Below, piece after piece: positions 15,018 to 55,187 of a DNA stretch of 64,000 bases. The position numbers were made by a program, and so were the translations under genes. The notes under the pieces were generated by a model. That model saw only the letters and a program-made list of their open reading frames with translations. It was not told where the DNA came from and did no database searches. The DNA lies in assembly GCA_041891055.1 (NCBI GenBank), contig CP169074.1:320001-384000 (forward strand), written 5' to 3'. The stretch comes from Halorutilales archaeon Cl-col2-1 (GTDB lineage: Archaea; Halobacteriota; Halobacteria; Halobacteriales; Afararchaeaceae). Numbering within the stretch: position 1 is the first letter of the stretch; the number at the start of each line of letters is the position of its first letter.

Positions 15018-15468
15018 TTGACATCCTCACCCGCCTGAAGTCGGGTGAATCCCACATTGGGAATTTAAGGTTTCCAACCAACACAACCTTGTCAGGAGTT
15101 TCCCCCATTCACGGTTATATCGGCTGAAGGCTGTGCCAAACAGCCGTTACTCCTATCCTCTCGGACTCGGAGTTATCTCTGAACTTCGTTCAGAGGTTAA
15201 CGAAGCTTTGCTTCGTGATATCTTTCTACCTACCTTCTGTGGGGTTTTCACAACACACTTTTTAATGCATTTTCACAACCCTTCCGTATATTACCTCGTT
15301 ACTTTGGGCGGGTAAACCGCCTACGTAGGTTGATTGACCCATACAAAGATTCGTTGTGGTACTACTAAACTTTTACTGAAATTCCGGTATAGTCACCGAA
15401 ATAGTAAGTTGAGTACTTCGACGGATTCATCCCGCACCTAAAGGTGCGGGTATTCTCCTGTGCTATCT
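15018..15468 (-). mobile_element. Non-autonomous IS200/IS605-family (IS1341/tnpB-derived) element
   Basis: Subterminal hairpins at both ends (CCCGCACCTAAAGGTGCGGG ~15431-15450; CACCCGCCTGAAGTCGGGTG ~15028-15047). Minus-strand right end ...GAGGATGTCAA; left end follows TTAT. Retains tnpB 3' remnants (RKITPSP, DRSNGCLAQP); no full ORF. Confidence 0.8.
15174..15223. repeat. 45-nt twin-hairpin insertion with TATCT direct repeats
   Basis: TATCT (15174-15178, 15219-15223) flank CTCTGAAC-TTC-GTTCAGAG and ACGAAGC-TTT-GCTTCGT. Confidence 0.85.
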
Positions 15469-39075: not shown

Positions 39076-40256
39076 GCTGGCTAGAGTGTATCGAGTGCGG
39101 CGAGACGTACAAGGGAGACAAGCCGCGTTACACGTGTGACTGTGGGGCTCTCTTAGACGTCAAGTACGATGTGACGCCTTCCAGAACCGACTTCTCGGGT
39201 TCCCTCGGTGTCTGGAGGTACTCGTCACTTCTCCCCGTCGACAGCCACTCAACGTTACAGGAAGGCGGTACTCCCCTCTACGACGCCGACAAGCTCTCCG
39301 GAGAGCTCGGTGTCGACCTACATATAAAACACGAGGGGATGAACCCCACCGGGAGCTTCAAGGACAGGGGGATGACCGTCGGAGTCTCGAAGGCGATAGA
39401 GCTCGGCATAGAGAGAGTCGCGTGTGCCTCAACGGGTAACACGAGCGCCGCGCTCGCCGCATACGGCGCGGGAGCCGACATACCCGCGGTGGTTCTCTTG
39501 CCCCAGGACAAGGTCGCTATGGGTAAGATAGCACAGGCACTGATGCACGGAGCCGAGGTTCTCGAACTTGACGGCAACTTCGACGACTGCCTCGACATCG
39601 TGAGGTCTCTCGGCGAGAAGGAGTACTTCTACGTCCTCAACAGCGTCAATCCCTACCGCTTAGAGGGACAGAAGACGATAGCCTTCGAGGTTCTCGAACA
39701 GCTCGACTGGGAGATTCCCGACAGGGTTGTTCTTCCCGTCGGAAACGCGGGCAACATAAGCGCGCTCCACAAGGGATTCCGTGAGCTCTACAACGCCGAG
39801 GTCATAGACGAGCTTCCGAAGATGACAGGAGTACAGGCGAAAGGAGCCTCGCCGTTCGCACACGCAGTCAAGAAAGGCGGTCCGCTCGAACCCTTCAACG
39901 AGCCCGAGACGAAGGCAACCGCGATACGTATAGGCGACCCGGTCAACGCGCCTAAGGCGAGGAGGGCGATAGAGGACACCGACGGAACCGCGACTTGGGT
40001 CGACGACGAGACTATCGCGGAGTTCCAGTCGAAGCTCGCCTCCGAAGAGGGAATAGGCGTAGAGCCCGCGAGCGCGACCTCGGTCGCTGGAGTCGCCGAC
40101 CTCATTGAGGCGGGCGAGATAGACGAGGGCGAGACTGTGGTCTCGGTCGCGACGGGACATCTCCTCAAAGACCCCGATGCCGCCCTCGAAGCCTCGGGAC
40201 GTCCGACTCAGGCAGACGCCACCGACGAGGCAGTCATCGAGGCTCTCGAAGAGTAG
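39072..40256 (+). CDS. thrC: Threonine synthase
   Basis: CIECG/CDCG N-terminus, [46 protein letters not shown]. Confidence 0.93.
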
Positions 40257-40305
40257 AAGAGCAGTAGACCGACGGAGTTTTTGTCTTTCTCAGCGTATAT
40301 ACGGC

Positions 40306-41289
40306 GTGGAATCGTTAGTCGAACTCGTACTCACGAGGGTTGTTCCACGTGTTCTCAAGATAGCCCTTCTGATAGGCGTAGGAGTGTCTCTCGCTAACAT
40401 AGCCGTTGAGTTCGGTGCTGTAAAACGCATAGCATCGGTGGCGCGTCCCATAACTAAGGCGGCGAACCTCCCCGAGGAAGTCGGGACTGCTATACTCGCC
40501 ACCGCCGCCTCTACGACTGCTGGCTACGGAATGCTCGCCGAGTACCGCGAGTCGGGGAAGATAGACGACACGGAGACGCTGATCGCTGTCACTATAAACA
40601 CCTTCTTCGGCTTCGCACAGCATATACTCACTTTCTACGCTCCCGTTCTGATACCTATACTCGGTCTCAAGGTGGGACTGATGTACGTCGGAGCGCGTGC
40701 GGCGATCAGCCTCTCGATTACATTTGTCGGAATCGCAGCGGGAGCACTACTCCTCTCCGATGTATCTCGGGAGAACGAGACAGAGGTCACTGGTTCGAAA
40801 GTAGATACCGACGCTGACACCGATGTCGACGATGACACGAGGACACCCAAAGAAAAAACACGCGAAGCCCTCGGATCGAGTACCTCGACACTCAGGAGTA
40901 TACTCCCTCGTCTCGCGGTGATCTATACCGTAGTCGTCGTCTTGACAGAGAACTACGACGTCAGGTCTCTCACCTCTTTCGGACAGCCTATCGCCGAGGT
41001 CACGGGTCTGCCGAGCGAGAGTATTCCTGTTATAGCCGTCTATGCTATCGATACCACGAGCGGGACTCTCACACTCGCGCCGATGCTCAATACCGCCTTC
41101 ACGTCTAGGCAGGCGGTCGCGACTATGCTGATAGGCGGTATCGTCTCTTTTGCAGTCACGACATTCAGACGGTCGATCCCTTTCCAGTACGGTATGTGGG
41201 GAGCGAAGTTCGGCTCGAAGGTCATCATACTCAACACGACTCTCAAGGTAATCTTTATATCGTTGACAGTCGCTCTGCTTCTCTACTGA
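40306..41289 (+). CDS. Nucleoside-recognition (Gate) domain membrane protein
   Basis: Polytopic, two halves joined by an acidic linker; GTG start at 40306 inferred. Confidence 0.7.
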   Translation: MESLVELVLTRVVPRVLKIALLIGVGVSLANIAVEFGAVKRIASVARPITKAANLPEEVGTAILATAASTTAGYGMLAEYRESGKIDDTETLIAVTINTFFGFAQHILTFYAPVLIPILGLKVGLMYVGARAAISLSITFVGIAAGALLLSDVSRENETEVTGSKVDTDADTDVDDDTRTPKEKTREALGSSTSTLRSILPRLAVIYTVVVVLTENYDVRSLTSFGQPIAEVTGLPSESIPVIAVYAIDTTSGTLTLAPMLNTAFTSRQAVATMLIGGIVSFAVTTFRRSIPFQYGMWGAKFGSKVIILNTTLKVIFISLTVALLLY

Positions 41290-41332
41290 GACACGTCGGT
41301 GGTTTTTATACGTGAGTCGCCGTATCTCAGAC

Positions 41333-42403
41333 ATGGACGACGACTCCTTAGACTTCCTCAGAAGACTCGTAGAGACTCCAAGCCCGTCAGGTTTCGAGAT
41401 TCCCAACCTCGAAAACTGGCGTGAGAGGGTCGGGGACTTCGCCGACGAGATCGAGACAGACGCCTACGGCAACACGACGGCGACCCTAAACCCCGGCTGT
41501 GACACCTCGGTCGTTGTGACTGGACACGCCGACGAGATCGGCTTCATGGTGCGTTATATCACCGACGACGGCTACATATACGTCGAACGTATCGGTGGGA
41601 TAGACCCCGGTGTCGCCGAGGGACAGCGCGTCACTGTACACACGCGCGACAACGGAGAAGACATCAAGGGCGTCGTCGGACGTAAGCCGATACATCTCCA
41701 GGAGGACGAAGACAGGGAGAAGGTTCCCGATCTCGAAGAGCTCTGGATTGACATAGGTGCCGACGACAGAGAGGATGTCGAGGACGCGGGTGTCTCAGTC
41801 GGTGACCCCGTGACCTACGATGTCGGTTTCGAAAGGCTCCAGGGCGACGTAGTCGCGGGACGCGGCATAGACAACCGTATAGGCATCTGGGTCGCCGCGG
41901 AGGTTCTGAGAGCCGTCGATCCCGAAAAACTCGATGTTACACTCCACGCCGTAGCGACCGTACAGGAGGAGGTCGGTCTCAAGGGCGCACAGATGGTGGG
42001 ATACGACCTCGACCCCGACGTCGCACTCGTCGTCGATGTCACATTCGCCACCGACATGCCCGGTCTGAGCGGCAAGAAACACGGCGAGATAAACCTGGGT
42101 GAGGGACCTGCACTCAAACACGGGAGAGAGAACCATCCCCGTGTCCTCGAACACCTCCAGACAGTCTCCGATAGCCGAGGTATAGAACTCCAGAACGAGC
42201 CTATGATGACACGTGGAGGAACCGATGCCGACGCCTTCTACGTCTCGCGTGGCGGAATAGCTTCTGCCTCCGTCGGAGTTCCGAACCGTTACATGCACAC
42301 CCCCTCCGAGGTCGTGAGCCTGACCGACCTCGAAGACGCGCGTGACCTCTTTGCGGGCTTCGTAGAGGAGCTAGATCCCGACGAGAGCCTGAGACGTATC
42401 TGA
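41333..42403 (+). CDS. M42-family metallopeptidase (TET-like)
   Basis: PSPSGFE, GHADEIG, DNRIG, VQEEVGLKGA, VDVT, GGTDA, RYMHTPSE. Confidence 0.93.
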   Translation: MDDDSLDFLRRLVETPSPSGFEIPNLENWRERVGDFADEIETDAYGNTTATLNPGCDTSVVVTGHADEIGFMVRYITDDGYIYVERIGGIDPGVAEGQRVTVHTRDNGEDIKGVVGRKPIHLQEDEDREKVPDLEELWIDIGADDREDVEDAGVSVGDPVTYDVGFERLQGDVVAGRGIDNRIGIWVAAEVLRAVDPEKLDVTLHAVATVQEEVGLKGAQMVGYDLDPDVALVVDVTFATDMPGLSGKKHGEINLGEGPALKHGRENHPRVLEHLQTVSDSRGIELQNEPMMTRGGTDADAFYVSRGGIASASVGVPNRYMHTPSEVVSLTDLEDARDLFAGFVEELDPDESLRRI

Positions 42404-42532
42404 GGCGAGAACGACACGACGCAGTCTGACACCGAACGGAGGGACGGAAGACCGGATACAGATCTTAAACAGGTCTGCCCCCGGTATGAAACCAAAGTAT
42501 TCAAGGTCTGACACCCGTAAGTATGGGGTAGA

Positions 42533-42604
42533 GGGCTCGTAGATCAGGGGTAGATCACTCCCTTGGCATGGGAGAGGCCCCGGGTTCAAATCCCGGCGAG
42601 TCCA
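42533..42604 (+). tRNA. tRNA-Ala(GGC)
   Basis: Acceptor GGGCTCG/CGAGTCC with G3:U70, anticodon arm CTCCC-TTGGCAT-GGGAG, T-arm GGTTCAAATCC. Confidence 0.97.
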
Positions 42605-42781
42605 TACTGTTTGTTCGGTCATAAGGAGTGAGGTAAAAACACCAGACAGCGTAGAGTTCGTCGCTAAAATCCGCATTTCTGAGAGGAGAGTTCAATTACA
42701 TCGTAATTGCGGGTCTACGCTGTCTTGCGATGACGAGGAGGGAATATTCTTACCAGTAGTATTTCAAGGAGGTGAGTCGTC

Positions 42782-43070
42782 TTGAGCGAGGACTCACAGA
42801 CCCAGAAAATCTACTGCGAAGACTGCAGCCTACATATCGACGCCGAGATCTGGGAGACCCACCTCAGAAACAGACACCCCAGAGAATACGATCCCGCCAC
42901 GTTCGGAAATCTCTAATTTCCGAGCCATCAAAATCATAGATTTTGAGACGTTCGACCTCAACGACTACCTAGACGTCGACGATAGTAGCGGAGGCGGCAA
43001 AGAAAGTGTCGACAAGTCACGCGTCCTCGAACCTTTGAGACGGCGGTCGAGTACTACCACGACCAACTCG
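42782..43070 (+). pseudogene. Small C2H2-zinc-finger ORF truncated by a twin-hairpin insertion
   Basis: AGGAGGTGA ribosome-binding site then TTG. YCEDCSLHIDAEIWETHLRNRH. The current stop (42914-42916) lies inside the insertion; removing it restores ...PATFDLNDYLDVDD. Confidence 0.6.
42899..42954. repeat. 49-nt twin-hairpin insertion with ACGTTCG direct repeats
   Basis: ACGTTCG at 42899-42905 and 42948-42954 flank CGGAAATC-TCT-AATTTCCG and TCAAAATC-ATA-GATTTTGA, with a GAGCCA-type linker. Confidence 0.88.
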
Positions 43071-43165
43071 ACACATAACTCCCCCGGGGGTGAGATGTCC
43101 CTACCGTAATTGATCTCGGTACGACGCATATCTGAGCTAACCAACATTTCTTACTCTGATTTCGC

Positions 43166-44260
43166 TCAAGGCTTCCGTAGATAGACAGACACTACTGTTC
43201 CTTCAGGTTCCTGAGTTCGGAACTCGACCTCTCCCTCGGACTTGGATACTATCCATTTCACGATCCAAAGACCTACTCCACTCATATGCCTGAGGGGTGT
43301 CTCTTCCTCCTGATTTAGAACCTCCGTAGTGGTCTCTGGAATACCGGATCCGTTATCCTTCACCTGTATCTCTACTTGGTCGTCAACAGTGTCGAGTTCC
43401 ACGTCAACACGAGGGGACGGTTTATCGTTGTGCTCGATAGCGTTTTCTATCAGGTTCTCAAACGCGAAGTCTATCAAGGGAACTGCAAGGACTTCCTCAG
43501 AATCGGGTAACGTAGTTTGGATCTCAGCTTCCGGATAGTCCTGACTCATCTCCTCAACACAGTCCTGAATTACATCAACTATCTCGATAACGTCTCTCTC
43601 AGATTCGTCTTCGCGGAATATCTCCTCTCCAACACGTATCTTTTCACTAATTCTTAGAAGACTCTCCATCTTCTCCTGTATATCTCCTATGTGTTCGGTG
43701 CCTGAGGGGCAGGTTTCCTCTAGAAGTGCGGCTCTTCCCTTAACCACAGTCGCAGTATTCCTGAGATTGTGGCGGAGAATACGGTTTAGAACTGAGAGCT
43801 GTTGGTTTAGATTTTTAACATGCGACTTTTCTTCCCTCAGATTGTCAGACGCCATCTTACTCCGACTCTCATAGATACCTGTTATCATACCCACAACTGC
43901 TCCCCCTGTCATTGGGTTTACAACCATAGGAACCTGGTGCGCCATTACTACACTATGTACCTCTTGATGTAAAATAGTCAGAACCGACTCGAACCCGAAT
44001 ATCATTGAGATTATTAGAGACCACTCCGCGACACGTAACGTGTAACCGGGCGTTAGGTCACTCAGCATGATCCAGACTCCGCTCATAAGGAGAATTACTG
44101 ACAGAACTGAGGGGGCTAGTATCCCCGAGAAGAAGCTCAACATCGGTTTCTCAGCCTGAGAGAAATGGTATACTTGAAAGGCCAAGTATAGGATTCCTTG
44201 ACCAAGGATGACTGATAAGCCGGCAATGGATTTCAGGTCATCTGAGAAACGAAGATTCAT
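43166..44260 (-). CDS. Membrane sensor histidine kinase
   Basis: About four N-terminal TM helices, LRHNLRN, NLIENAIEH, DNGSGIP, GVGLWIV; start MNLRF. Confidence 0.88.
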   Translation of the reverse strand: MNLRFSDDLKSIAGLSVILGQGILYLAFQVYHFSQAEKPMLSFFSGILAPSVLSVILLMSGVWIMLSDLTPGYTLRVAEWSLIISMIFGFESVLTILHQEVHSVVMAHQVPMVVNPMTGGAVVGMITGIYESRSKMASDNLREEKSHVKNLNQQLSVLNRILRHNLRNTATVVKGRAALLEETCPSGTEHIGDIQEKMESLLRISEKIRVGEEIFREDESERDVIEIVDVIQDCVEEMSQDYPEAEIQTTLPDSEEVLAVPLIDFAFENLIENAIEHNDKPSPRVDVELDTVDDQVEIQVKDNGSGIPETTTEVLNQEEETPLRHMSGVGLWIVKWIVSKSEGEVEFRTQEPEGTVVSVYLRKP

Positions 44261-44719
44261 CCCCTGATGTGTCTTTTCCCCCTGGGCTAATAAATCAGGG
44301 GGAGATAGTATACTATACCTATATTGACAGCTCTCCTCACAACTCAAGGAATTTGTGAATCATAAACTACTTCGCTCGTCCTGAGGACTCGCTCCAAGGA
44401 GAGTTCAGAAATCTTTGATGGATGTGTCCTTGAAAATGCTCCGCGTCTCGTCATGCCCTGTAAACCGAAGATTTGCATATGAACCCGTCAGGTCGAGCGA
44501 GTAGGAGGAGTTCACCTATTCTCTGGTGAATCTGTCCATCGATTTTCGATAGGGGTTCCGAAATAAACATGAGCGTAGCTGGAATATGAGTATTCATTAC
44601 TTAGACGAGCGTTTTTCTCAAGTATGAAAACGCTGTGACCAGTACTATTTTGGTCACAGTATGTATATCAAATATATGATGATAGCAGTAACTTCTATAG
44701 ACGTCCGGGAGGAGACAAA

Positions 44720-45586
44720 ATGAGCTATGAGGAGTGGACGGAGAACCAGTCATCGACGACTCTAACTGTAGATGATCACGACCTCGAAGTCGCCTACTAT
44801 GAGAACGGCGAAAGTAATGGCGAGTCAACACCTGTCGTTTTCCTCCACGGTATTCCAACATGGTCATATCTATGGCGGGAAGTAGCTCCTGAACTTGCTA
44901 CCAAGCGCCATGTAGTGGCACCGGATCTTCTCGGCTATGGAAACTCCGCAAAGCATGATGGCTTCGACAGATCGATACGTGCCCAAGAAGAAATGGTCGA
45001 TAAGCTCCTCGATCACCTCGGTATCGACGAGGTTTCATTCGTTGCACATGATATCGGAGGTGGTACTGCTCTCCGGTATGCTGTCCACAACCCCGATATG
45101 GTCGAAAGCCTTGTGCTCTCGAATTCGGCGTGTTATGACTCGTGGCCTGTCGAGTTCATCCATAGTCTCGCACTGCCCAGTATGGTAGATGAACTCTCCG
45201 ACGACGAGGTTCTAGAAGATAAGATGTCCTTCGTGTTCGACGAGGGTCTTTACGACGACGATACTGAAAGCCACTCGGAGTTCTGTGAAGGAATGCGAGC
45301 ACCCTGGCAGTCAGAAGAAGGAAGGCTTTCTCTAGTCCGGAATGCTTCTTCGACAAATACCAACCATACCACTGAACTCGACTACAGTAAACTAAAGGCT
45401 AACATTCTCCTACTGTGGGGGGAAGACGATATCCTACAGTCAGTCAACTATGCCAAACGTCTCCAGTCCGACGTGAGTGGTGACGTGAAGCTCGTAACCT
45501 TGGAAGATTCCTATCACTGGGTTGTCGAGGATCGTCCCGATGCCTATCGAAACGAGGTCATGAAGTTCTTCGAAAATAGCTCGTAA
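44720..45586 (+). CDS. Alpha/beta-fold hydrolase (epoxide hydrolase/dehalogenase-like)
   Basis: FLHGIPTWSYLW, APDLLGYG, nucleophile elbow AHDIGGG, LWGEDD, catalytic His in YHWV. Confidence 0.9.
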   Translation: MSYEEWTENQSSTTLTVDDHDLEVAYYENGESNGESTPVVFLHGIPTWSYLWREVAPELATKRHVVAPDLLGYGNSAKHDGFDRSIRAQEEMVDKLLDHLGIDEVSFVAHDIGGGTALRYAVHNPDMVESLVLSNSACYDSWPVEFIHSLALPSMVDELSDDEVLEDKMSFVFDEGLYDDDTESHSEFCEGMRAPWQSEEGRLSLVRNASSTNTNHTTELDYSKLKANILLLWGEDDILQSVNYAKRLQSDVSGDVKLVTLEDSYHWVVEDRPDAYRNEVMKFFENSS

Positions 45587-45682
45587 TCTCGTTAAGCCAT
45601 CAGTAGTGAACACTCTCCCCATCTCAAATAGACGGCTTAGAAAACCCTGTATACATTCTCGTTGCCATTAGAATCTGTCTCT

Positions 45683-45702
45683 GTATGGCGATTCACCAAA
45701 AC
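45683..45702 (+). mobile_element. Isolated IS5-family right-end sequence
   Basis: GTATGGCGATTCACCAA is a 17-nt exact inverted match to the IS5 remnant end at 48606-48622. Confidence 0.65.
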
Positions 45703-45763
45703 TATTTAGGAGAGTGTATCAATAGATTAAATAGATATAAACCCATTATATACATAGAATAGA

Positions 45764-48385
45764 GTGTTCGACGTTATTATCCACTCGCTTGAGCATAGTT
45801 ATATTCTTATTTTTGGACTAGCCGCCGTTGTTTGTATTGGGGGAGTGATGGGTGTTCAAACATTTGACCACCCGGACATACGTCGCAGCCTTAGTGGGCT
45901 ACTCCTCCTCAACGGCGTCTGGTCACTCGCAACTGCGTTTCAGCTTTTCGTGACGACCTACGCGATGAAAAGTTTCCTTCATATTGTTGGACTCATTGCG
46001 GGAATCTCGACTGTCTTTGCTTGGCTCTCATTTGCCTCGGCTTACTCAGGTCGTCATTACCACCGAAAGCGTTCTCTTCAGGTAGTCAGTCTGGTATTTC
46101 TAGGCTTTATTTGTCTCCTGAAGCTGACAAATCCGCTCCACGGCTTGTACTTCAGTACGTCAGCTGCTACTGAACCATTCAGTTACCTGAAGATAAATTA
46201 TGGCCCAATACACTGGTTTGTAACCGGATTCGCCTACACAGCGTCAGCAGTTGGGTTTCTCTGGCTATTTGAGTCGTTCGAACGGAGTCTATCCAAGGAT
46301 AAATCGAGACCGACTACTCTCTACGCCCTCGTACTCGTGACTGGGCTTCCAGTAATCCCTTATGTTCTTTCGACATACTCAAATCTACTTCTCAGAATAA
46401 ATTATGAGCCACTCGGGGTCGCTATCTTCGCAGTCGGGGTTGTCTTCTACGCACGTTCGGAGTTTGTGAACCATAGTTCACCCGAGAAGGCCGCTCTCGC
46501 CAAGAACTTCTCGGAGGCGGGTCTAGTTCTCGACAAGTTCGGGGTAGTTATCAATTATAATGACCGAGCAGCCAGAGTTCTGAACACCCCGGGGATACCC
46601 CGTGAACCCTTAGAGGAGATCGACACAGAACTTGCTTCACTTGCGGCTGGGGAGACTAGACACATCAACTACGAGGTTGAAGGGAGAGAACGTGTCTACG
46701 AAGCCCGGCGTTCCCAAGTCACAGAGAGCCTCATCGCTGACGAAGTCATCATTCTGAAAGACATAACGAGGGCGACTCGTCTTGAACAGCTAGTCCGGTT
46801 CTACCAAGATATTAACGAAGCTCTCATCGAGGTGACTGATCCCTGGGATATAATACAGGATATCCCTGAGAGGTTTGCTCAGATTGATGTGTATGATCTT
46901 GTCTGGCTGTATCCGGTTCCTACTGAGGATCAGATCCAACCAGCTACAAGTAACATTGTAAGCAACCAAGAATTAATTAGCGGGGAGGGTACTGTACCTG
47001 GGCTCGTCGCGGGAAAGGCGGACGAGTACGCTACGTGGGCATCTTCGAATGCGGGATTAGAAGAGCCCGTAACTGCCGCAGCACGTCAGAAGCAGAAACA
47101 ACACGTTGCTGTCAGCTCCGATGAGTCTAACACCGAATCTGAATGGAGGCACAGAGCGGGCGAGTATGGTATAACTGACACTTTCGCGGTTCCGATGACC
47201 TTCAGTAATCAGCAGACGTATATCCTCGGGGTATTCAGTACCGCACCCGACGGATTTGACTCAGCTGAAAGAAGGGTGATTGAAGAGATAAGTAAGGGAA
47301 TACCTCAAGCTATCGAGTCGATAGAGACCCACAAGGAGGCGTTACAGTACAAGGAAGCAATCAGACAAGCGGGAGCAGCAATCAGTATAACGGACAATGA
47401 CGGAGTGATCCGGTATGTGAACCCCGCATTCGAGGATCTCACAGGTTATTCAGAGGAGGAAGCAGTTGGTTCCACTCACCAAATTCTAAAATCGGGCGAG
47501 ATGGATGAGGAGCATTACGAGAGCCTGTGGAACACGGTTCTGTCAGGAGATATATTTGAGGAACAGATCATCAATAAAACGAAAGACGGAGACAGGTACA
47601 TCGCCCGACAAACTATATCACCAGTTACTGACGAGGATGGCGATCCAGAGGCGTTCGTGGCTATTCAGCTTGATATCACCGACAAGATTTTGCGCGAACA
47701 ACGTCTCTCTGTACTCAACAGAGTACTGCGCCACAATCTTCGGACAGCCGTCAACGTTATCACCGGAAACACAACGCTACTCAAAGAACGGGTTCAAGAT
47801 GTCATCGGATCGGAAGAACTCCCTCCTGAGATCGAGAGTTCTGTCGAAACCATCCGGAGTAAGGCTGAAGAGATGTCTGATCATGCAGAGACAGCTCGCG
47901 AGATAGAGGAGAAGATCTCGAAGAGTCAGACGGATCAGGTTCGAGTACCTATTGAAAAAGTAGCTCAGAAAGCGGAGAAGGCTGCGGAGTCATTCGATGC
48001 GAATCACTCGGTTGAAGTTAGTGATAATATAGACGAGTATCAAGTCGATGTTGAGACAGTACAAATAATTGAGGAGCTGGTCGAAAACGCGGTGGTTCAC
48101 AATGATAGACCCCTATCCGAGATCAAAGTTGAGATCGAGCTTTCGAGAGCCGACAACGATCTAGTTCTCACTGTCAAGGACAACGGTCCGGGGCTTTCCG
48201 ACCAAGAGCTCGTAGTCGTGGAGGAAGGTACTGAAGAATCTCTTCAGCACAGCAGTGGCTTAGGTCTGTGGATGGTCAACTGGCTAGCGATATCTCTTGG
48301 CGGATCGATTAGTGCTACTACGAGCGGAGACGGAACTACAGTTAGGGTAGTAATTCCTCTTCGAGGGGAGTCAACTCCCTCGTAG
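45764..48385 (+). CDS. Histidine kinase with N-terminal 7TM domain, GAF-like and PAS domains
   Basis: 7TM region (TNPLHGLYF), PAS (YVNPAFEDLTGYS), LRHNLRT, ELVENAVVH, DNGPG, GLGLWMV. Confidence 0.9.
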   Translation: MFDVIIHSLEHSYILIFGLAAVVCIGGVMGVQTFDHPDIRRSLSGLLLLNGVWSLATAFQLFVTTYAMKSFLHIVGLIAGISTVFAWLSFASAYSGRHYHRKRSLQVVSLVFLGFICLLKLTNPLHGLYFSTSAATEPFSYLKINYGPIHWFVTGFAYTASAVGFLWLFESFERSLSKDKSRPTTLYALVLVTGLPVIPYVLSTYSNLLLRINYEPLGVAIFAVGVVFYARSEFVNHSSPEKAALAKNFSEAGLVLDKFGVVINYNDRAARVLNTPGIPREPLEEIDTELASLAAGETRHINYEVEGRERVYEARRSQVTESLIADEVIILKDITRATRLEQLVRFYQDINEALIEVTDPWDIIQDIPERFAQIDVYDLVWLYPVPTEDQIQPATSNIVSNQELISGEGTVPGLVAGKADEYATWASSNAGLEEPVTAAARQKQKQHVAVSSDESNTESEWRHRAGEYGITDTFAVPMTFSNQQTYILGVFSTAPDGFDSAERRVIEEISKGIPQAIESIETHKEALQYKEAIRQAGAAISITDNDGVIRYVNPAFEDLTGYSEEEAVGSTHQILKSGEMDEEHYESLWNTVLSGDIFEEQIINKTKDGDRYIARQTISPVTDEDGDPEAFVAIQLDITDKILREQRLSVLNRVLRHNLRTAVNVITGNTTLLKERVQDVIGSEELPPEIESSVETIRSKAEEMSDHAETAREIEEKISKSQTDQVRVPIEKVAQKAEKAAESFDANHSVEVSDNIDEYQVDVETVQIIEELVENAVVHNDRPLSEIKVEIELSRADNDLVLTVKDNGPGLSDQELVVVEEGTEESLQHSSGLGLWMVNWLAISLGGSISATTSGDGTTVRVVIPLRGESTPS

Positions 48386-48601
48386 AAATCGATTCATAGA
48401 AAAGCACGGGAAGTAGGGCAGGGTGCTAAAAATAGTCGAACTTGATAACGTTATCTTCCAAATGCTGATAGAGTTAAAGTTACTATACTCTCAATCCGGT
48501 CTCAACACCGAGTTGAGATATCTCCTTCCCATGGAATACCTCAGGTATACGCAAGTCTACACAAGCTAACTAACATTTCTGAGGGTTTCATAGAACTGTT
48601 C

Positions 48602-49259
48602 GGCGTTGGTGAATCGCCATACGAAGCTTGATTTACTGTTTTACGGCATGTTTGATGTTGTAGACAGAGCAGATCAGGATGAGTTCACGAAACTCTCTGT
48701 ACCAGGCACGCTCACGCACGGCTTCACGAAGCACAGCTTCGTTAGCTGAAAATCTTCGATTTTAAGCTGTGCCGAGCGTGCGCTTGATGTTTGAGAAGAC
48801 GGTTTCAGACATGGATCTTTGACCATAGAGAGACCCATCGATTCTGGTGTCGCAAATCTGAGATTTGCGTACATCCAAAAATCAGAGATTTTTGAATACG
48901 TTATGCGCCTGATCGATGGGTCGGAACTCACGGTGTTTGGTGAGTGGTGCTTATCCGTAGACAGTGGAGAGAAACGATGGCGTAATCCGCGAAGCCGCCA
49001 CCCTGCTCTGGGGTGGCGGCTTCGCTCCGACCACCGACATCATGAACTCCGTTCATGAGCCTCAAAGCTCCGCTTTGAGACAGCGTTTTTAGCTAATGTC
49101 ACGACTCTATCAGTGATGTGTTGTGAATCTTTGATTCACATACGTTGGAACGCAAGCGTTCCAAAACGGGAGATTTTGGATATGTCATCGAAAACTTCCC
49201 GCTTCATCTCCTTTGCATTAGTGGCTTAATCCAACGCAGTCTAGTGATTCACCAAAACC
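48602..49259 (-). mobile_element. Degenerate IS5-family (ISH1-like) element with central deletion and four hairpin insertions
   Basis: IRs GGCGTTGGTGAATC and GATTCACCAAAACC. After removing the insertions the minus strand reads SKISRF-TDRVVTLAKNAV-GGRSEAATPEQGGGFADYAIVSLHCLRI [deletion] PLTKHREFRPIDQAHNA-RIDGSLYGQRSMSETVFSNIKRTLGTA-VRERAWYREFRELILICSVYNIKHAVKQ*. Confidence 0.88.
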
Positions 49260-49304
49260 AATTGAGGAAAGTAAGATTGGTCTAGAAGATCAAAACTGGA
49301 AGGA

Positions 49305-50234
49305 TTAGGATGACGAAGAAGAGACGTTTTCGATCTCTAACTCACCTTCCATTCCGTTCTTCTCTATCTCGATCTCAAACTCCTCTTCAGGTACCTGAAC
49401 AGTGATTCTCCCGGTTTCGTTCGTTCTACCAACATCTTCGTCGTTCACACTCACGCTAGTGTTTGTAACAGCCGAGCCGTTTACTGTAGCTGTGACTGTC
49501 ACATTTTCGCCAGCCGTGACATTTCCTTCAACATTAATATTGACTCTCTGTTGACTGTCTCCATCCTCGTCGTCTTTGTCGTCTTTGTCGCCTTCATCCC
49601 TCACTCCGCGTTCGTCTTCTTCTTCATCTTCCTCATGTTCATCATCTTCTCTATCTACCTGATTCATGGGGACATCAGTACCTGACTCACTGACTACTGG
49701 TTTGAGTATGTACTTGCCGCTCTTTCCAGCTTTGTGTACTGAGATATCGAACACGAAGTCAATGGACTCGTTGTTGCCTACTGTGAAGTTCTTGTTGACG
49801 TGTAGCTTTTCGCTCGGGAGCTTGACGTTGACCTGTTCTCCATTGTCAAGTGTGGCGTTAATCTCATCAACGTACACGAATACCTTACTGTAGGTGCCGT
49901 TGGGGACGTCGTACTCGTCGATCATGGTTGCGTTCTCCCCCTTTAGCTTGGTCAGGTCGACAGTCACATTGTCGACCTCGTGAGTCTCCCAGTTAGACTG
50001 ATTCGACGACTCGTTTACGTTTACGCGATTAAATCCGACTTCAGTAACTGTGACATTTAGGTGCTCGAAGTCGTCAATTGCGTTCGGCTGATCACTTATG
50101 TATAAGTTGACTGTGCCAAGATTGGTGTCTTCTCCGTCATCTGTTCCAGCATCTCCTCCATTCATGCCGCCGGTACAGCCGGCGAGCGCTACTAAGCCTA
50201 CGACCGCTACTATACCGAGTGTTTTCGTTCTCAT
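49305..50234 (-). CDS. DUF4382-like lipoprotein
   Basis: LAGC lipobox, YISDQPNAIDDFEHLNVTV, VDLTKL, VKLPSEKL, FVFDISV..GKYILKP; acidic linker and extra C-terminal domain. Confidence 0.8.
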   Translation of the reverse strand: MRTKTLGIVAVVGLVALAGCTGGMNGGDAGTDDGEDTNLGTVNLYISDQPNAIDDFEHLNVTVTEVGFNRVNVNESSNQSNWETHEVDNVTVDLTKLKGENATMIDEYDVPNGTYSKVFVYVDEINATLDNGEQVNVKLPSEKLHVNKNFTVGNNESIDFVFDISVHKAGKSGKYILKPVVSESGTDVPMNQVDREDDEHEEDEEEDERGVRDEGDKDDKDDEDGDSQQRVNINVEGNVTAGENVTVTATVNGSAVTNTSVSVNDEDVGRTNETGRITVQVPEEEFEIEIEKNGMEGELEIENVSSSSS

Positions 50235-50470
50235 TTTCTATTGCTCCGGTTCCTCCTTAGTACCCGTGTGTACTTTAGTACCCGTAGAAGTCCGACTAAA
50301 TCCAACTGTCTGTGATTAGTTTTCAGTAGTTTTCACTCGTTTTTATCGTCCGGGAAACGTACAAACGACTGAAAAAGACTGCAAGAGGGTCAAAAAGAAA
50401 CAGAAAGGCGTGAAAACCACTCGGAGTTTCTTCTGCTTTTATTGCCGGTGGGGGTGTACATAGGACTACG

Positions 50471-51223
50471 ATGAAACAGAAAATAATAGCGACCTCGGCT
50501 TTAGTCATACTCCTCATGTCCGTAATGACACTCCCGGCGGTGTCCGCGCAGGAAAACAGTACTGACTCAGAAGTAAGGGAAAACTCAGGACTTTCGTTAG
50601 GACATCAGATCCAGGTAGTCGTCGAGTCACAGAGAAGTAAGGTCGTCGGAGACATCGAAAGAGAGGTGTTCAAACACTCGGTTGAGAACGCGAGCAATAA
50701 GTCCAGAGTAGTCAACCAAAAGGTCGAAGAAATACATAAGAGAACCACGGAAGCAGAACACGAACGCCAGAGACTTCTGGAACAGCTCCACAACGGATCT
50801 ATACAGCCACAGGAGTTCGCCGTCAAGATGTCAGATATAAATAATCAGATATCAGTGGCAGCGAGGGATATGAGAAAAGTGAACGAGACTATACAGAAGA
50901 AGGATATCAACAACGTAAGCCGAGAAGAGATGAATAGTTTCGAGAACAAAACACCGGTGAGTCCCGGGGTTCTTAGAACTGCGAACCAGGCACTTGATCT
51001 TGCACTAAATGCCGTTAACATGAGTGGTCAAGAGATTGCCCAAAAGGCAAGAAATATAGGGGGACAGAACGCTCCGGAAGATCTCATAACTGACAACTCG
51101 GGTAAGCCTAATAATGTATCCAGAGGAGTTCCTTCTGATGAAAAGCAGCCTAGTAAAGTTCAGGATCAGACCCAGGGAATGAGTGAGGCGGGTGAACTAC
51201 CCAGAGGTCAAGTTAAGCGATAG
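50471..51223 (+). CDS. Secreted hypothetical protein (helical)
   Basis: Signal peptide MKQKII...PAVSA; divergent from the DUF4382-like gene. Confidence 0.7.
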   Translation: MKQKIIATSALVILLMSVMTLPAVSAQENSTDSEVRENSGLSLGHQIQVVVESQRSKVVGDIEREVFKHSVENASNKSRVVNQKVEEIHKRTTEAEHERQRLLEQLHNGSIQPQEFAVKMSDINNQISVAARDMRKVNETIQKKDINNVSREEMNSFENKTPVSPGVLRTANQALDLALNAVNMSGQEIAQKARNIGGQNAPEDLITDNSGKPNNVSRGVPSDEKQPSKVQDQTQGMSEAGELPRGQVKR

Positions 51224-51369
51224 GTCTCTGGTGGCACTCTGCGACCATTTGCCGTTGTTTTTCCAGTTCGAAGAACGATGTTTTTTCTGGAAGAGTTTCC
51301 GTTGCTCCCGTTCAACTTGCAGTAGCGCGGAGTCCCCCTTGAGGGAGAAGGCTTAGCGCCTGCTATCAG

Positions 51370-52011
51370 CTAAACGAACTTTATTCCGAGATCCTTGAGA
51401 CCGTTCTTTATGCCTATATTTATAAGGAGGGGTGTTACGCTCTCTATCTGTGCGGCGTTTCCGAGGCTTCCGGCGTCGAGTGCGTTGACGCCTTCCACCG
51501 ACTCGACGACCTCGACTGCGGTCTGTTTCGCGTCTGCCTCCCCGAAGACGGCTATGTCGACTCCGAGTTCGGCGTCAGGGTCGGCGAGACGTCCCGCGGC
51601 TATGTTGTGGAAAGCACCCGCGACGCCGACCGAGTCAGGAAGACCGTCACGCACGATCTGTGCCGCGCTTCCCTCTTCGGGTCTGTCGTACTTGAAGCCG
51701 TCCTCGTCACGTTTCATGCTCGTGACGGGGGATATGACTGTCTTTTCTTCGTCTGCGACCTCGGCGACCTGATCCACGACGTCAGGGAGGGAGCCGAAAG
51801 GAACCGCGAGGACGACGACCTCGGCTTTAGCTGCGTCGGCGTTCGATCCGCTCTTGACTTCGACTCCCGTCCTCTCGGAGTACTCGTCGGCGGCTTCTGA
51901 TGCTCTGTCCTCATCCCTGCTTCCGACTACGACTTCGTGCCCAGCCTGAGCGAGACGCACTGAGAGACCGCCTCCGAAGTCACCCGTGCCTCCTATTATT
52001 CCTATTCTCAT
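51370..52011 (-). CDS. npdG: NADPH-dependent F420 reductase
   Basis: IIGGTGDFGGGL, VGSR, VLAVP, GSAA, AFHNIAA, IESVTPLLINI. Confidence 0.88.
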   Translation of the reverse strand: MRIGIIGGTGDFGGGLSVRLAQAGHEVVVGSRDEDRASEAADEYSERTGVEVKSGSNADAAKAEVVVLAVPFGSLPDVVDQVAEVADEEKTVISPVTSMKRDEDGFKYDRPEEGSAAQIVRDGLPDSVGVAGAFHNIAAGRLADPDAELGVDIAVFGEADAKQTAVEVVESVEGVNALDAGSLGNAAQIESVTPLLINIGIKNGLKDLGIKFV

Positions 52012-52120
52012 ACTTACTTAGTATGACGCCGTGGGAGTCGTTATAGATTGCGTTATACAGACGCAAGGCGGAGTCAAAGCACAATTCTTATACTTGTACC
52101 GCGATACTGTTAGAATGCGC

Positions 52121-52192
<72 letters not shown>

Positions 52193-52195
<3 letters not shown>

Positions 52196-52388
52196 AATTT
52201 CTCTGAAATTTGCACGGAACAGAATTGTAGATTCTGTGACGTTCGCTAATCTCTGATTAGCGTGCAAGCAAATCTTCGATTTGCGAACGTATGCAAATCA
52301 AAGATTTGCGAGCCTGCGAGATCAGAGATCTCGGAACGTTCGGAAATCTTCGATTTCCGAGCCAGCGAGAACGGAGTTCTCGGAACGG
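52193..52388. repeat. Array of eight triloop hairpins, 23-25 nt period
   Basis: Loop centres at ~52203, 52228, 52253, 52276, 52301, 52325, 52350 and 52374; stems differ and linkers alternate. Confidence 0.92.
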
Positions 52389-52484
52389 GAGAAAAACTCG
52401 TTCCCTCCTTGTGGGATTTTTCTATTTCTTCAGAGTCTTCCACTTTCGACGTATTTATCCAGGAACTGTGGTTACTTCCAATAG

Positions 52485-54425
52485 ATGTCTGACTCTGACG
52501 AGCATGGAGGATTCGAAAGTATACGTGAGGAGGTCAAGGGCAATCCTATCGTGAGATTGCTTGGCTACACCCGTCCCTACAAACTACGTCTGATCACTGG
52601 GGTATTGATGTCGTTCTGTACCCGTCTCGCACGCCTCGCACCCCCCGTAATCATAGCCACAGCGATAGATAGGATCATCTTCCAGCGTGGCGAACCGGGT
52701 TTACTTGCTCGGATAGGTTTAGTTCCCTCTGACACCGTCACTAATCTAAATGCCCGGGCTGAGCTGCTGGAAACCTTGGTAATCATAGCTGTTGTTGCCT
52801 ATCTCGTCCGGTCAGTGACACGGTTTCTTTCGCGGTATCTCATCCAGTCAGCCGCACAGAAGATACAACGCGACCTACGGAACGACACGTATGACCATCT
52901 CCAGCATCTTTCGATGAGCTTCTTCACTAACCATCAGACAGGCGGTATGATGTCGATTCTTAACAGTGACATCAACCGACTCGAACAGTTCCTCAACACC
53001 GAGTTCCGCCAGTTCCTCCGTGTGATAGCTATGGTCGGCGGGATTAGCCTAATCCTGTGGTACTATTCGCCTACTCTAGCCCTAATTGCTCTCGCACCTG
53101 TTCCTGTAGTAGGAGTTGCGAGCGGTGGATTCCTCCGTTGGATCGAGCCTCGGTACCAGTCCATCCGAGAGACTGTCGCACGTTTGAACACCCGTTTGGA
53201 GAATAACCTGGGCGGCGTTGCAGTCGTGAAAGCCTTCAACCGTTATGATTTCGAACGTGCCCGTGTAGAGAACCAGAGCCAGAGATACCACGACGAGAAG
53301 GTCGGTGCACTACGTATACGACGTGCTTTCTTCGCCGGTCTACGTTTATTAACGGGAGTGGTATTTGTCGTGGTGCTATACGTAGCTGGCAAGGACTTTA
53401 TAGCTACGCCTACGGGCAAAGAGCCGATAATCTCTGCAGGTGCCTTTGCGGCTTTCTTCATGCTGTTGAGACGTCTCTACTCGCCAATGCGACGAGTGGG
53501 GAAATCAGCTAATAAATATCAGCTTGCGAAATCGAGTGCAGAGCGAGTGTTCGGACTACTTGCAACTCAACCCAGTATGACTAGCCCGTCCGATCCGTAT
53601 CAACCACAGGAGATCGATGGCGACGTCGTGTTTGATTCTGTGTCTTTCGGGTATAACGACAGCAAAAACGAGAAAGTCATCGAGGATCTATCCTTAGAAG
53701 TGCCTGCAGGCACCACCATCGGTCTCGTAGGGGAAAGCGGAGCCGGAAAATCGACCCTGCTTAAACTCATACCGAGGCTCTATGACGTGGATTCCGGATC
53801 GGTCAAAGTTGATGGAACTGATGTACGTGAGTACGGTGTAGAGGCACTACGTGATAAGATAGCTGTAGTCGAACAGAATCCATATCTGTTCTCCGGAACG
53901 GTGGCAGAAAACATAGCCTATGGCAACAGAGAAATCCTCCGAGCCGAGAGTAGCCAGACTGCCACGGACAAAGAGGACGAAGATGAGGTTCGAAAACGGA
54001 TAACCGACGCAGCCCAGGCTGCTGAAGCCCACGGTTTCATACGCGATCTTCCGGACGGATATGACACACAGATAGGCGAACGAGGGGTTAAGCTCTCGGG
54101 AGGACAGCGTCAGCGGGTCGCAATCGCTAGAGCACTACTCAACGACCCCGATATAATAATATTCGACGAGGCGACGAGTGATGTCGATACTGAGACGGAG
54201 GATCTCATACAGCAGAGCCTCGAACGTCTCATTCACGACAGAACTGCTTTCATCATTGCTCACCGTCTTGCTACAACCAAGAATGCCGACCGGATAATTG
54301 TATTAGAGGACGGCGAAATAGTTGAATCGGGCACGCATAAAGAACTCGTACAGACCGAAGGAGTCTACGCATCGTTGTGGAACGCCCAAGCGAATATGAA
54401 TGAACCCATCGGATCGATAGGATAG
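52485..54425 (+). CDS. ABC exporter, fused permease/ATPase (MsbA-like)
   Basis: TM domain plus [37 protein letters not shown]. Confidence 0.93.
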   Translation: MSDSDEHGGFESIREEVKGNPIVRLLGYTRPYKLRLITGVLMSFCTRLARLAPPVIIATAIDRIIFQRGEPGLLARIGLVPSDTVTNLNARAELLETLVIIAVVAYLVRSVTRFLSRYLIQSAAQKIQRDLRNDTYDHLQHLSMSFFTNHQTGGMMSILNSDINRLEQFLNTEFRQFLRVIAMVGGISLILWYYSPTLALIALAPVPVVGVASGGFLRWIEPRYQSIRETVARLNTRLENNLGGVAVVKAFNRYDFERARVENQSQRYHDEKVGALRIRRAFFAGLRLLTGVVFVVVLYVAGKDFIATPTGKEPIISAGAFAAFFMLLRRLYSPMRRVGKSANKYQLAKSSAERVFGLLATQPSMTSPSDPYQPQEIDGDVVFDSVSFGYNDSKNEKVIEDLSLEVPAGTTIGLVGESGAGKSTLLKLIPRLYDVDSGSVKVDGTDVREYGVEALRDKIAVVEQNPYLFSGTVAENIAYGNREILRAESSQTATDKEDEDEVRKRITDAAQAAEAHGFIRDLPDGYDTQIGERGVKLSGGQRQRVAIARALLNDPDIIIFDEATSDVDTETEDLIQQSLERLIHDRTAFIIAHRLATTKNADRIIVLEDGEIVESGTHKELVQTEGVYASLWNAQANMNEPIGSIG

Positions 54426-54578
54426 CAGGATGTGAGAGGGAGCCGGAGTTTTGATGTGCGAGCTTACACACACGGGTCGAGTCACTGTTACTTGTCAGGA
54501 CATTTGTTTACTCTTCCACCATCTTCAGAAAACAGATGGGGAAGACTTACCCGTCTGCAGTTATTATGTTAATCTGTA

Positions 54579-54779
54579 ATGACGAACGGTAAGGTTGATT
54601 TCTTCAACGACACAGGCGGTTACGGTTTCATAGAGACTGACGCTACTGACGAAGGCGAGGACGTTTTCTTCCACATGGAGGACGTCGGCGGTGACGATCT
54701 CACAGAAGGCACAGAGATAGAGTTCGATATCGAAGAGGCTCCGAAAGGACCTCGTGCGACGAACGTCGTCCGCGTATAA
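54579..54779 (+). CDS. Cold-shock protein
   Basis: GKVDFFNDTGGYGFI, DVFFH, KGPRATNV. Confidence 0.95.
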   Translation: MTNGKVDFFNDTGGYGFIETDATDEGEDVFFHMEDVGGDDLTEGTEIEFDIEEAPKGPRATNVVRV

Positions 54780-54896
54780 GCGAGAGATCGTTACACGCCG
54801 GTACGATAGATACTACTTTCCTTTATTTGGCTAAATAACTTAGAGAGAGTCTTAATTATCTTTCCGGAGGATCGGAGTCCTGTGTATCAGTTCTGA

Positions 54897-55187
54897 TTAC
54901 TCGATTTCCAACTCGCCGCTGCTGCCGTCTCCTCCCCCACTGGCGTTCTCTTCCCATTCGAGTTCGAACTCGATACTTAACTCACCGGGTTGATCCGTAG
55001 CACCCTCGCGTTCGGCTTTGACCTCGAACGTCGGGCGGGCTGGAGGCTCCATAGTCACAGACTCGGAGCCGGATTTTAGCGTGATCGCGCTCCCTTGTTC
55101 GAGCTTATCAGCCACACTGCGAAGGTAGGCTGCGATATCCTTTCGACTCTGGTCGCCCTCTGATTTGAACAGAACTTCTTCAGGCAT
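54897..55187 (-). CDS. Amphi-Trp domain protein
   Basis: MPEEVLFKSE..SRKDIAAYLRSVADKL..ELSIEFELEW; start at 55187. Confidence 0.85.
   Translation of the reverse strand: MPEEVLFKSEGDQSRKDIAAYLRSVADKLEQGSAITLKSGSESVTMEPPARPTFEVKAEREGATDQPGELSIEFELEWEENASGGGDGSSGELEIE

Follow-up and report, generated by a model that had tools for sequence, protein, structure and literature searches.

A probable insertion of a 49-nt two-hairpin unit in a zinc-finger gene remnant of a haloarchaeon, and a candidate family of very small palindromic mobile elements

Small palindromic repeats without a transposase of their own, such as the small mobile repeats (SMRs) of haloarchaea and the CGTC-tagged repetitive extragenic palindromic sequences (REPs) of bacteria, have been described for more than a decade, and no mode of movement is known for them. 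In Haloquadratum walsbyi, the SMR-A elements HqIRS42, HqIRS43 and HqIRS55 (Dyall-Smith et al. 2011, PMC3119063) are about 110 bp long, make no duplications and show a strong tendency to enter near-terminal palindromes, both those of IS605-type elements and those of palindrome-associated transposable elements (PATEs); the section of that paper devoted to them calls their mobilisation 'enigmatic'. Terminal-only PATEs, the 52-bp fused ends of HqIRS46 / ISHwa23, are suspected there of being mobile as such, and near-terminal palindromes, the lack of a duplication and a targeting word of 4-6 nt are given as features of the IS605 type (PMC3119063). The CGTC-tagged REPs (Di Nocera et al. 2013, PMC3733652) consist of an unpaired CGTC (or TGTC/CCTC) tag, an 8-9-bp stem with a 4-5-nt loop and a 3-nt tail that is mostly CCA, occur as dimers, in clusters and inside genes, and have no dedicated transposase; the sections of the text that describe them deal with bacteria only, archaea being mentioned just in the reference list. 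Our literature search yielded no description of two-hairpin mobile units of 43-58 nt in haloarchaea. Here we analyse such a unit in Halorutilales archaeon Cl-col2-1, namely a 49-nt insert that interrupts an open reading frame (ORF) for a 44-aa C2H2 zinc-finger protein. The window, i.e. the whole stretch of DNA that was analysed, comprises 64,000 nt (assembly GCA_041891055.1, contig CP169074.1, positions 320,001 to 384,000 of the forward strand), and positions given without a contig refer to it. It is very probable that the insert arose by insertion of a mobile unit into a gene remnant. As to the units in general, the best overall explanation, which on balance we consider probable, is that they form a family of non-autonomous mobile elements of ~43-58 nt with two short perfect hairpins each.

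The insertion is regarded as real because an empty site exists in a paralogue, and not because of the 7-nt ACGTTCG repeat that flanks the insert, since the same 451 nt also contain further exact repeats, of 8 and 9 nt, and the 7-nt repeat alone is not beyond chance. A tblastn search with the 44 aa against the organism's own genome (G000) located the paralogue at C1:1671773-1671874, with 91% identity over 34 aa. The draft genome of another member of the genus (G001), which is 95% identical to G000 at the nucleotide level over the neighbouring peptidase gene, holds the same uninterrupted zinc-finger form, and both the paralogue and this orthologue read ...CCCGAGACGTTCGACCTC... where the window has 49 extra bases. 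When the window is aligned with the paralogue (G000:C1:1671774-1671895), 92 of 102 nt match through ...ACGTTCG and, past the 49 nt, 29 of 30 match from GAGACGTTCG on; the two matching blocks are contiguous in the paralogue, where they overlap by 10 nt. The paralogue is an ORF of 661 aa, in which the N-terminal finger is followed by a DUF7845 domain (E = 6.5e-62). In a search of 5.8 billion proteins, the only zinc-finger homologue (one of 227 candidates) was the same-genus orthologue in its long form, and a sequence search of genome contigs for homologues of the zinc-finger protein gave none. An earlier note on this DNA had proposed a genuine single insertion event, and the uninterrupted paralogue and orthologue bear this out; homologues ending naturally at ...FGNL, which it named as the contrary outcome, did not appear in the tblastn search, where the homologues run on as ...ETFDLNDYID....

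The details of the locus given in the earlier note, i.e. the ORF, the ribosome-binding site (a Shine-Dalgarno-like GGAGGTGA 7 nt 5' of the start), the C-x2-C-x11-H-x4-H motif that is read directly in the product, the two ACGTTCG copies spaced 49 nt apart and the hairpins, were all found in place (Table 1), and the insert does supply the stop codon, with the TAA in the loop of hairpin 1. No Pfam family was matched by the 44-aa ORF. Hairpin 1 is a one-base-decayed version of the common TCGGAAATC tct GATTTCCGA, and in hairpin 2, compared with the common TCAAACTC gta GAGTTTGA, the stem has a compensated change and the loop one altered base. They are joined by an unpaired GCCA (42924-42927); of the linker GAGCCA named previously, this part is indeed unpaired, whereas the first two bases are the end of the hairpin 1 stem. 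The unit starts in the same way, ACGTTCGGAAATC...ATTTCCGAGCCA, as the array at 52336-52364, as had been noticed. Because of the junction homology, its exact placement is ambiguous within 42896-42954. As a single strand the unit folds with -13.5 kcal/mol (z = -5.0; none of 200 shuffles was as good) into a three-way junction with ACGT/ACGT as the closing helix, and a search of 40000-55000 against Rfam found nothing beyond two tRNAs.

Table 1. Positions of the insert, of the interrupted gene remnant and of further units in the window
Feature	Position	Strand	Remarks
tRNA-Ala (GGC)	42533-42604	+	ARAGORN; Rfam tRNA 65.6 bits
44-aa C2H2 zinc-finger ORF	42782-42916	+	TTG start; TAA stop inside hairpin 1 of the insert; product MSEDSQTQKIYCEDCSLHIDAEIWETHLRNRHPREYDPATFGNL
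Left ACGTTCG copy	42899-42905	+	...ACG of the target, then first bases of the element
Inserted two-hairpin unit, 49 nt	42902-42950	+	T + hairpin 1 + GCCA + hairpin 2 + GACG; absent from the paralogue and the G001 orthologue
Hairpin 1, TCGGAAAT ctcta ATTTCCGA	42903-42923	+	8-bp stem, 5-nt loop
Hairpin 2, TCAAAATC ata GATTTTGA	42928-42946	+	8-bp stem, 3-nt loop
Right ACGTTCG copy	42948-42954	+	terminal ACG of the element, then host TTCG; site empty in the paralogue
Downstream remainder of the broken gene	42951-43076	+	1-nt deletion after 43031; homology to the primase-like gene on G001 contig C75 ends at ~43076
Four two-hairpin units	48726-48763, 48851-48894, 49040-49079, 49122-49164		inside a ~650-nt repeat (48600-49256)
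Eight-hairpin array	52193-52382	+	abuts the 3' end of tRNA-Glu (52121-52195)

Sequence comparison indicates that the interrupted ORF is what decay has left of the 5' part of a zinc-finger gene from an integrated element beside tRNA-Ala, and not a working gene that was split. The remnant lies 177 nt 3' of the tRNA-Ala gene, and the intact paralogue likewise sits behind a tRNA-Ala gene. The window copy has no DUF7845 domain; it shares with the paralogue only the finger and ~10 further codons, and past these the two are unlike. A large ORF of primase-like type stands at the end of G001 contig C75; its N-terminal part is matched at 85% by positions 43008-43072, its DnaG_N and Toprim_3 matches are slightly under the Pfam cut-offs, and the homology lies in the frame that is restored when the unit is removed. 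The alignment reveals a 1-nt deletion after 43031 and a loss of homology after ~43076. Hence the earlier statement that excision restores an acidic reading frame holds for ~25 codons and fails beyond them because of the separate 1-nt deletion, and the ORF that was then described as cut by a doublet is a pseudogene remnant with a further deletion and lost homology, not an intact gene cut once. Metagenome contigs from three runs (X1, X2 and X3, of two studies) carry the window locus at 98-99% identity without 42782-42942: they join 42781 to 42943, which amounts to a 161-nt deletion between 5-nt TTGAG repeats, and the extra G absent from the window at 43031 is present in some contigs of one run. 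This deletion allele and the variation at 43031 suggest that the region is decaying and dispensable. Since the contigs carry the 161-nt deletion and not the window allele, they give no date for the insertion, and the unit may have arrived before or after the death of the gene, both of which fit the data. In G001, the contig with the orthologous window site (C45) stops at the tRNA.

The insert is far from being alone in the genome. A scan for hairpins with a perfect stem of at least 6 bp and a loop of 3-7 nt in the first 500 kb of C1 found 846 hairpins against 534 in the shuffled control, 44 clusters of at least two adjacent hairpins against 9, and a largest cluster of 8 hairpins against 2. The stem top AATC-nnn-GATT is shared by 160 of the hairpins with stems of 7 bp or longer, which number 756. 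A structural search for the insert's own type, here called family A, identified 48 loci among at least 114 hairpin clusters genome-wide. The form of family A is a bordering CG followed by the unit, which runs as T, a hairpin with the AATC top, GCCA, the second hairpin and GACG: the 5' side reads CGT at 37 of 48 loci and the 3' side ACG at 37 of 48, and 31 of the 33 loci with both borders measure 48-49 nt when counted from the base after the left CG up to and including the right CG, so that the 49 nt of the insert are the modal unit length. At most family-A loci the linker after hairpin 1 is GCCA, GCC or GCCCA, and hairpin 2 itself is without a CCA tail. Unit stems are of 7-9 bp, the commonest loop is of 3 nt, and the stems vary among copies by paired changes; the two hairpins within one unit are unlike each other, and neighbouring units of an array are not copies of each other.

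When 185,579 species genomes were scanned for the exact pattern of hairpin 1 plus linker, 24 stretches had it, and 21 of these come from records whose titles name a Halobacteriales or Euryarchaeota archaeon or Halorutilus salinus; the same pattern occurs in 5 of 41 relatives, the window's own genome included. The AAATC-N3-GATTT palindrome is present in 132 of the 151 genomes of the order, with counts of 1-105 per strand and mostly 0 for the reversed control, and the genus of the window is the richest (104 and 105). The density of AAATC-top hairpins in the window organism is about 50 per Mb. One genome of another family holds 72 copies of the palindrome.

Evidence of mobility comes from the comparison of 229 hairpin clusters, taken with 220-nt flanks, against the own genome and 26 loci of G001. 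It gave 30 filled/empty pairs that differ by 40-60 nt with at most 4 mismatches, and these represent 24 distinct inserts at 18 distinct target sites. Inserts of two, three and four units, of 97-105, 151-155 and 189 nt, were also found. Single-hairpin indels numbered only 2, and both have 7-nt homology inside stems, which points to recombination; from the whole-unit differences and the rarity of single-hairpin indels, we conclude that the two-hairpin unit is the quantum that moves. Near-identical unit pairs are 204 among 303 adjacent hairpin pairs, and 37 of them have unrelated flanks on both sides. The ~650-nt repeat that contains four units of the window recurs at C1:1015996-1016674, C1:1299291-1300400, C2:71430-72501 and further places with the units at fixed positions, and a paralogous copy at C1:304563-305493 is without all four. 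In the draft G001, units stand near contig ends (C2:367, C6:41 and C8:622).

Some further observations concern these repeats and units. The ~650-nt repeat includes a 15-bp perfect hairpin (GCGAAGCCGCCACCC...). The unit CTCTGAAC ttc GTTCAGAG, gtta, ACGAAGC ttt GCTTCGT at 15177-15216 is identical to that at C1:464703-464742, and the latter is missing from a paralogous tnpB element on C2. In otherwise identical copies the 3-nt loop can be swapped for its reverse complement (GAA/TTC, gta/tac), which was seen in one of 32 with identical flanks and stem; the cases are L014:2059 compared with G000, and L025 compared with C1:1421090-1421188. Such flipped loops hint at strand switching or at inversion within palindromes.

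The junctions of the 18 target sites show a homology of 0, 0, 0, 0, 1, 1, 2, 2, 3, 3, 3, 3, 3, 4, 4, 6, 12 and 17 nt, and at 10 of them junction and element end share at least 3 nt, against 5% for random placement (P = 3e-9). The 7 nt of the insert fall in the upper part of this range. Thus an interpretation of the 7-nt repeat as a target-site duplication must be given up, as the homology varies from 0 to 17 nt and is nil at four sites; there being no fixed duplication, the repeat is rather the element's own ...ACG end together with a target that mimics the inter-unit linker. A fixed 2-nt CG duplication was also considered and rejected: it fits exactly for 6 of 24 inserts, no better than the dinucleotide AC (7 of 24). 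Family-A loci have the 5' border CG(T) at 37 of 48, and the flanks differ in the other unit families. The simplest reading of these sequences for family A is that T, hairpin 1, GCCA, hairpin 2 and GACG would enter 3' of a word ending in CG. Examples of such family-A entry sites are between GAGACG and TTCG in the zinc-finger gene, between CCCAGACG and GAGC at the tRNA-Glu end in G001, between CTCAACGAGCG and A in the loop of the right-end hairpin of one tnpB element family, and in linkers inside arrays (C1:914987 and L012:2091). The site behind ...CTCAACGAGCG at the right end of this insertion sequence (IS) is a hotspot: 4 copies have it empty and at least 7 have it occupied, and all 7 F3-type copies have the same orientation. 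As regards structure, 60-mers around empty targets fold with a median of -11.4 kcal/mol, compared with -6.4 kcal/mol for 1000 random positions (P = 1.3e-4), the zinc-finger target being one of the few that fold weakly; an enclosing-pairs measure of target structure did not discriminate the targets from random positions.

The earlier note had also remarked that the target resembles the linker, and the empty target GAGACGTTCG is in fact identical over 10 nt to inter-unit junctions (e.g. C1:1018884, 259814 and 1837346). This word occurs 83 times in the genome against 31.8 expected, 8 of the occurrences being at unit borders. Units have entered at linkers or beside resident units at C1:914987, L012:2091, L025:2024 and L028:2828, so arrays can grow by such insertion, just as had been suggested before these four events were seen, and recombination of units at their own linker, which the same suggestion invoked, may be one of two live mechanisms. 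The eight-hairpin array of the window starts at the last base of tRNA-Glu, and G001 (L028:2828-3026) has one extra 48-nt unit between tRNA-Glu and the array, flanked by the 12-nt repeat GACGGAGCAAAT. Past this array, the G001 sequence resumes at what corresponds to window position 55415 and is thus without ~3.2 kb. The tRNA-Glu array had no match in a plasmid collection.

Many of the units are associated with tnpB elements. Of the 114 hairpin clusters, 49 lie in or at most 450 nt from a tnpB frame, and such DNA makes up 3.2% of the genome. Several targets are loops or stems of subterminal hairpins of tnpB elements, and the units reside in the terminal hairpins of these elements as guests; their own hairpins have no match among the terminal hairpins of the 29 tnpB elements inspected, which are GC-rich, e.g. 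CCCCGCCG...CGGCGGGG. The genome has about 30 tnpB genes (34 matches) and a single Y1 transposase gene. This sole Y1 (HUH) tnpA, at C1:979038-979397, and a 457-aa tnpB are divergently oriented within an ordinary tnpA-tnpB element (C1:977538-980897, L002), and the loop of the left-end hairpin of the element, CCCCGCCC/GGGCGGGG, has been invaded by six hairpins, i.e. three units, which gives a block of 211 nt. The block is found again at C1:533432 and C2:51514 with 98% identity, and shorter two-hairpin versions of it stand at C1:113559 and C2:69929. Tyrosine integrase genes are present in the genome, and a serine recombinase (IS607-like) was rejected as a candidate, no Resolvase-domain gene being found in the genome, which is 99.5% complete. 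In 22 inter-cluster intervals, with frames judged by their first residues, TnpB-like frames predominate and no resemblance to another transposase was noticed; nor was a transposase or recombinase linked to the units identified in the genome.

Two side observations may be recorded here. At C1:129993-130035 and C1:219451-219493 a 48-nt unit lies in frame within a tnpB ORF, where it contributes 16 extra aa (SRSGSFDGSQIEDLRT) immediately ahead of the VLGVDL RuvC-I motif; there are two full-length copies with this addition and four related TnpB proteins without it, and a further copy of the in-frame unit is at C1:1930867, close to a tnpB fragment. The paralogue of the zinc-finger remnant is the first gene of an 18-kb island (G000:C1:1671516-1689750; L001, L053), which is bounded by direct repeats of more than 100 nt starting in the 3' end of another tRNA-Ala gene and includes ZnF-DUF7845, type I cas genes (cas6, cas7, cas5, cas3, cas4 and cas1) and two tyrosine integrases. 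The direct repeat of this island contains a two-hairpin unit, and G001 is without that unit next to the tRNA.

How the units might move can be outlined as follows. A unit would travel in single-stranded form, folded into its hairpins, much like IS200/IS605 and REP elements; cleavage would fall behind the ...ACG at its end, and the unit would be joined to the 3' side of a short word that matches, in target DNA that is transiently single-stranded or itself forms hairpins, and no target duplication would be made. At the locus studied here, a unit would thus have landed behind the ...ACG of GAGACG, before TTCG, in the coding 5' part of the zinc-finger gene of an element integrated beside tRNA-Ala. 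The enzyme would be supplied in trans, for which the nearest candidate is the sole Y1 (HUH) transposase at C1:979038-979397. As the preferred word would be the same as the element's own 3' end, a resident unit would offer a target right behind itself, and head-to-tail arrays would result. A single-strand mechanism of the Y1/HUH type is favoured because of the lack of duplication, the subterminal hairpins at both ends, the strand-specific orientation at the hotspot, the identity of target and element end, and the hairpin-forming targets; it is put forward tentatively, as a possibility to be taken seriously.

Several observations weigh against this account, and they are collected here. At the locus itself, the left flank is GCC-ACG in the window and GAG-ACG in the paralogue, i.e. 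two extra differences right at the junction, which could be either paralogue divergence (10% overall) or an imprecise left junction. Across the target sites, junction homology is zero at 4 of 18, and CG stands at the junction at 12 of 18 against 8.8 expected, which is no significant excess (P = 0.09, across all unit families). Units are absent from 75 of the 83 GAGACGTTCG sites; with 8 of 83 at unit borders, the word is neither necessary nor sufficient, and the proposal of the linker as the preferred target is therefore upheld in that this target is identical to the linker, and not in the sense that such a word would suffice. Concerning the enzyme, the end hairpins of the tnpA-tnpB element are GC-rich and unlike the units, and genomes rich in hairpins (at least 15 AAATC-N3-GATTT) are not enriched in Y1, which 9 of these 21 possess as compared with 71 of 151 overall, several of the Y1-negative ones among the 21 being incomplete. 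IS608 uses TTAC as target and guide tetranucleotides 5' of its hairpins, and has a lagging-strand bias. In the units the left border is a single nucleotide away from hairpin 1, which leaves no space for an IS608-style guide tetranucleotide, and the orientation of family A on the replichores (13:7 vs 5:9, P = 0.16; replichores inferred from GC-skew extremes at 0.12 and 1.50 Mb and from the only chromosomal orc1/cdc6 gene, at 1.519 Mb) is not significant.

An alternative is site- or structure-specific recombination, by which an excised or folded unit with a short core (...ACG/T...) would be integrated by a tyrosine recombinase or a junction-resolving enzyme, akin to integron cassettes that enter between G and TT via a folded attC, so that the flanking repeat would be the shared core. 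The homology of at least 3 nt at 10 of 18 sites, the ACGT/ACGT closing helix that juxtaposes both borders, and the insertion of units at the linkers of resident units are what one would expect of it, and it would also suit the tyrosine integrase genes of the genome and hairpin-rich genomes that show no Y1 enrichment. We nevertheless hold it to be unlikely: the units have no linked recombinase, a Resolvase-domain gene was not found in this nearly complete genome (99.5%), the homology is inconstant in length and zero in 4 of 18 events, and the orientation at the IS-end hotspot is fixed although CG and ACGT are palindromic.

Another alternative does without any transposase: template switching at stalled forks would copy units into new places as microhomology-mediated templated insertions, with hairpins setting where the polymerase exits and re-enters. 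The variable microhomology of 0-17 nt, the strongly folding target DNA, the inserts of 2, 3 and 4 units and the lack of a dedicated enzyme would agree with such a process, and the flipped loop (1 of 32) fits strand switching inside palindromes. However, it hardly explains constant borders, with 31 of 33 units of 48-49 nt, or identical sharp-ended units at unrelated loci; neighbouring units of an array are not copies of one another, and homology is 0 nt in the four cleanest events, which at both junctions would be rare for template switching. We consider it quite improbable. The weakest alternative, that there was no insertion at all and that the 44-aa protein is native, the hairpins a terminator or 3' structure and the long paralogue the product of a fusion or a 49-nt deletion, could appeal to the intact C2H2 motif and the Shine-Dalgarno-like GGAGGTGA of the ORF and to small zinc-finger proteins being common in haloarchaea, but it is very improbable indeed, as homology to the paralogue picks up exactly after the 49 nt (29 of 30), the same type of unit occurs at 48 loci, the downstream stretch matches the G001 primase-like gene in the frame without the unit, contigs of three metagenome runs are without 42782-42942, and orthologues ending in ...FGNL plus hairpins were not found, the one homologue among 227 candidates having the long form.

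Returning to the units as mobile elements, they break genes, add in-frame peptides to TnpB and invade both the ends of TnpB elements and the flanks of tRNA genes. The zinc-finger locus allows filled and empty states to be compared unusually cleanly, away from any insertion sequence, and together with the 18 independent target sites of G000 and G001 it constrains the biochemical search to an activity that handles a unit of 48-49 nt, makes no duplication, relies on identity between element end and target, and prefers hairpin-forming DNA. In a wider and more speculative view, which we think has a minor chance of being right, the units would be an archaeal branch of the orphan 'tagged REP' elements and, at ~48 nt, would rank with the smallest pieces of mobile DNA described so far. 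Their movement would be due to an enzyme or a structure-dependent process that has yet to be connected with any small palindromic repeat, and targets would be picked in hairpin-forming DNA by an identity of a few bases to the unit's own end. If true, this would explain the self-built arrays and the invasion of TnpB element ends, the guide-RNA region included, and it would make the organism, with its ~50 AAATC-top hairpins per Mb and the many differences between the two genomes of the genus, a workable system for the missing mobilising activity of both CGTC-type REPs and haloarchaeal SMRs.

With regard to known systems, elements driven by DDE-type transposases can be set aside first: their miniature inverted-repeat derivatives (MITEs) are, like the units, short, non-coding and multi-copy, but have terminal inverted repeats that match a transposon and a target duplication of fixed length, and the units have neither. 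REPINs fold into one long hairpin, which the two unlike hairpins of a unit cannot do, and their RAYT transposase is single-copy and flanked by repeats, whereas the only Y1 gene here belongs to an ordinary tnpA-tnpB element. Rickettsia palindromic elements, as briefly characterised in PMC3733652, resemble the units in being in-frame palindromes in protein genes, to which the 16 aa in TnpB correspond; the 49 nt of the zinc-finger insert differ in that they break the frame, the comparison being one of descriptions only.

The closer relatives are the three systems introduced at the outset, here taken as the respective sections of the two papers portray them. Like SMR-A, the units are transposase-free, multi-copy and without target duplication, and both enter IS605-type palindromes, 49 of 114 clusters being at tnpB elements in this genome (PMC3119063). 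SMR-A elements are of ~110 bp with 'prominent' inverted terminal repeats, in contrast to units of 43-58 nt with CGT/ACG ends and two unlike hairpins, although the two-unit inserts of 97-105 nt could correspond in size, as far as a comparison by description can tell. Terminal-only PATEs share with the units a length of ~50 bp, two near-terminal palindromes and the absence of duplication, and thereby provide a model for the use of an IS200/IS605 transposase by the units (PMC3119063); the units are not, however, fused ends of local tnpB elements, 29 of which were inspected. With the CGTC-tagged REPs, again compared by description only with respect to their consensus, the units have in common an unpaired tag, since they possess CGT(T/C) and hairpin 2 read on the other strand gives CGTC (...GACG at 37 of 48 loci), as well as stems of 8-9 bp (7-9 bp in the units as a whole), the pairing into dimers and clusters, the copies inside genes and the orphan status (PMC3733652); the CCA tail there may have its counterpart in the GCCA that follows hairpin 1 here. 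Differences exist in the loops, which are of 4-5 nt there and mostly of 3 nt in the units, and in the arrangement, which is mostly that of head-to-head dimers there, while the mobile unit here has its tags outward (PMC3733652). On these grounds, the element belongs among the haloarchaeal small mobile repeats and the tagged REPs, of which it is a new, smaller variant.

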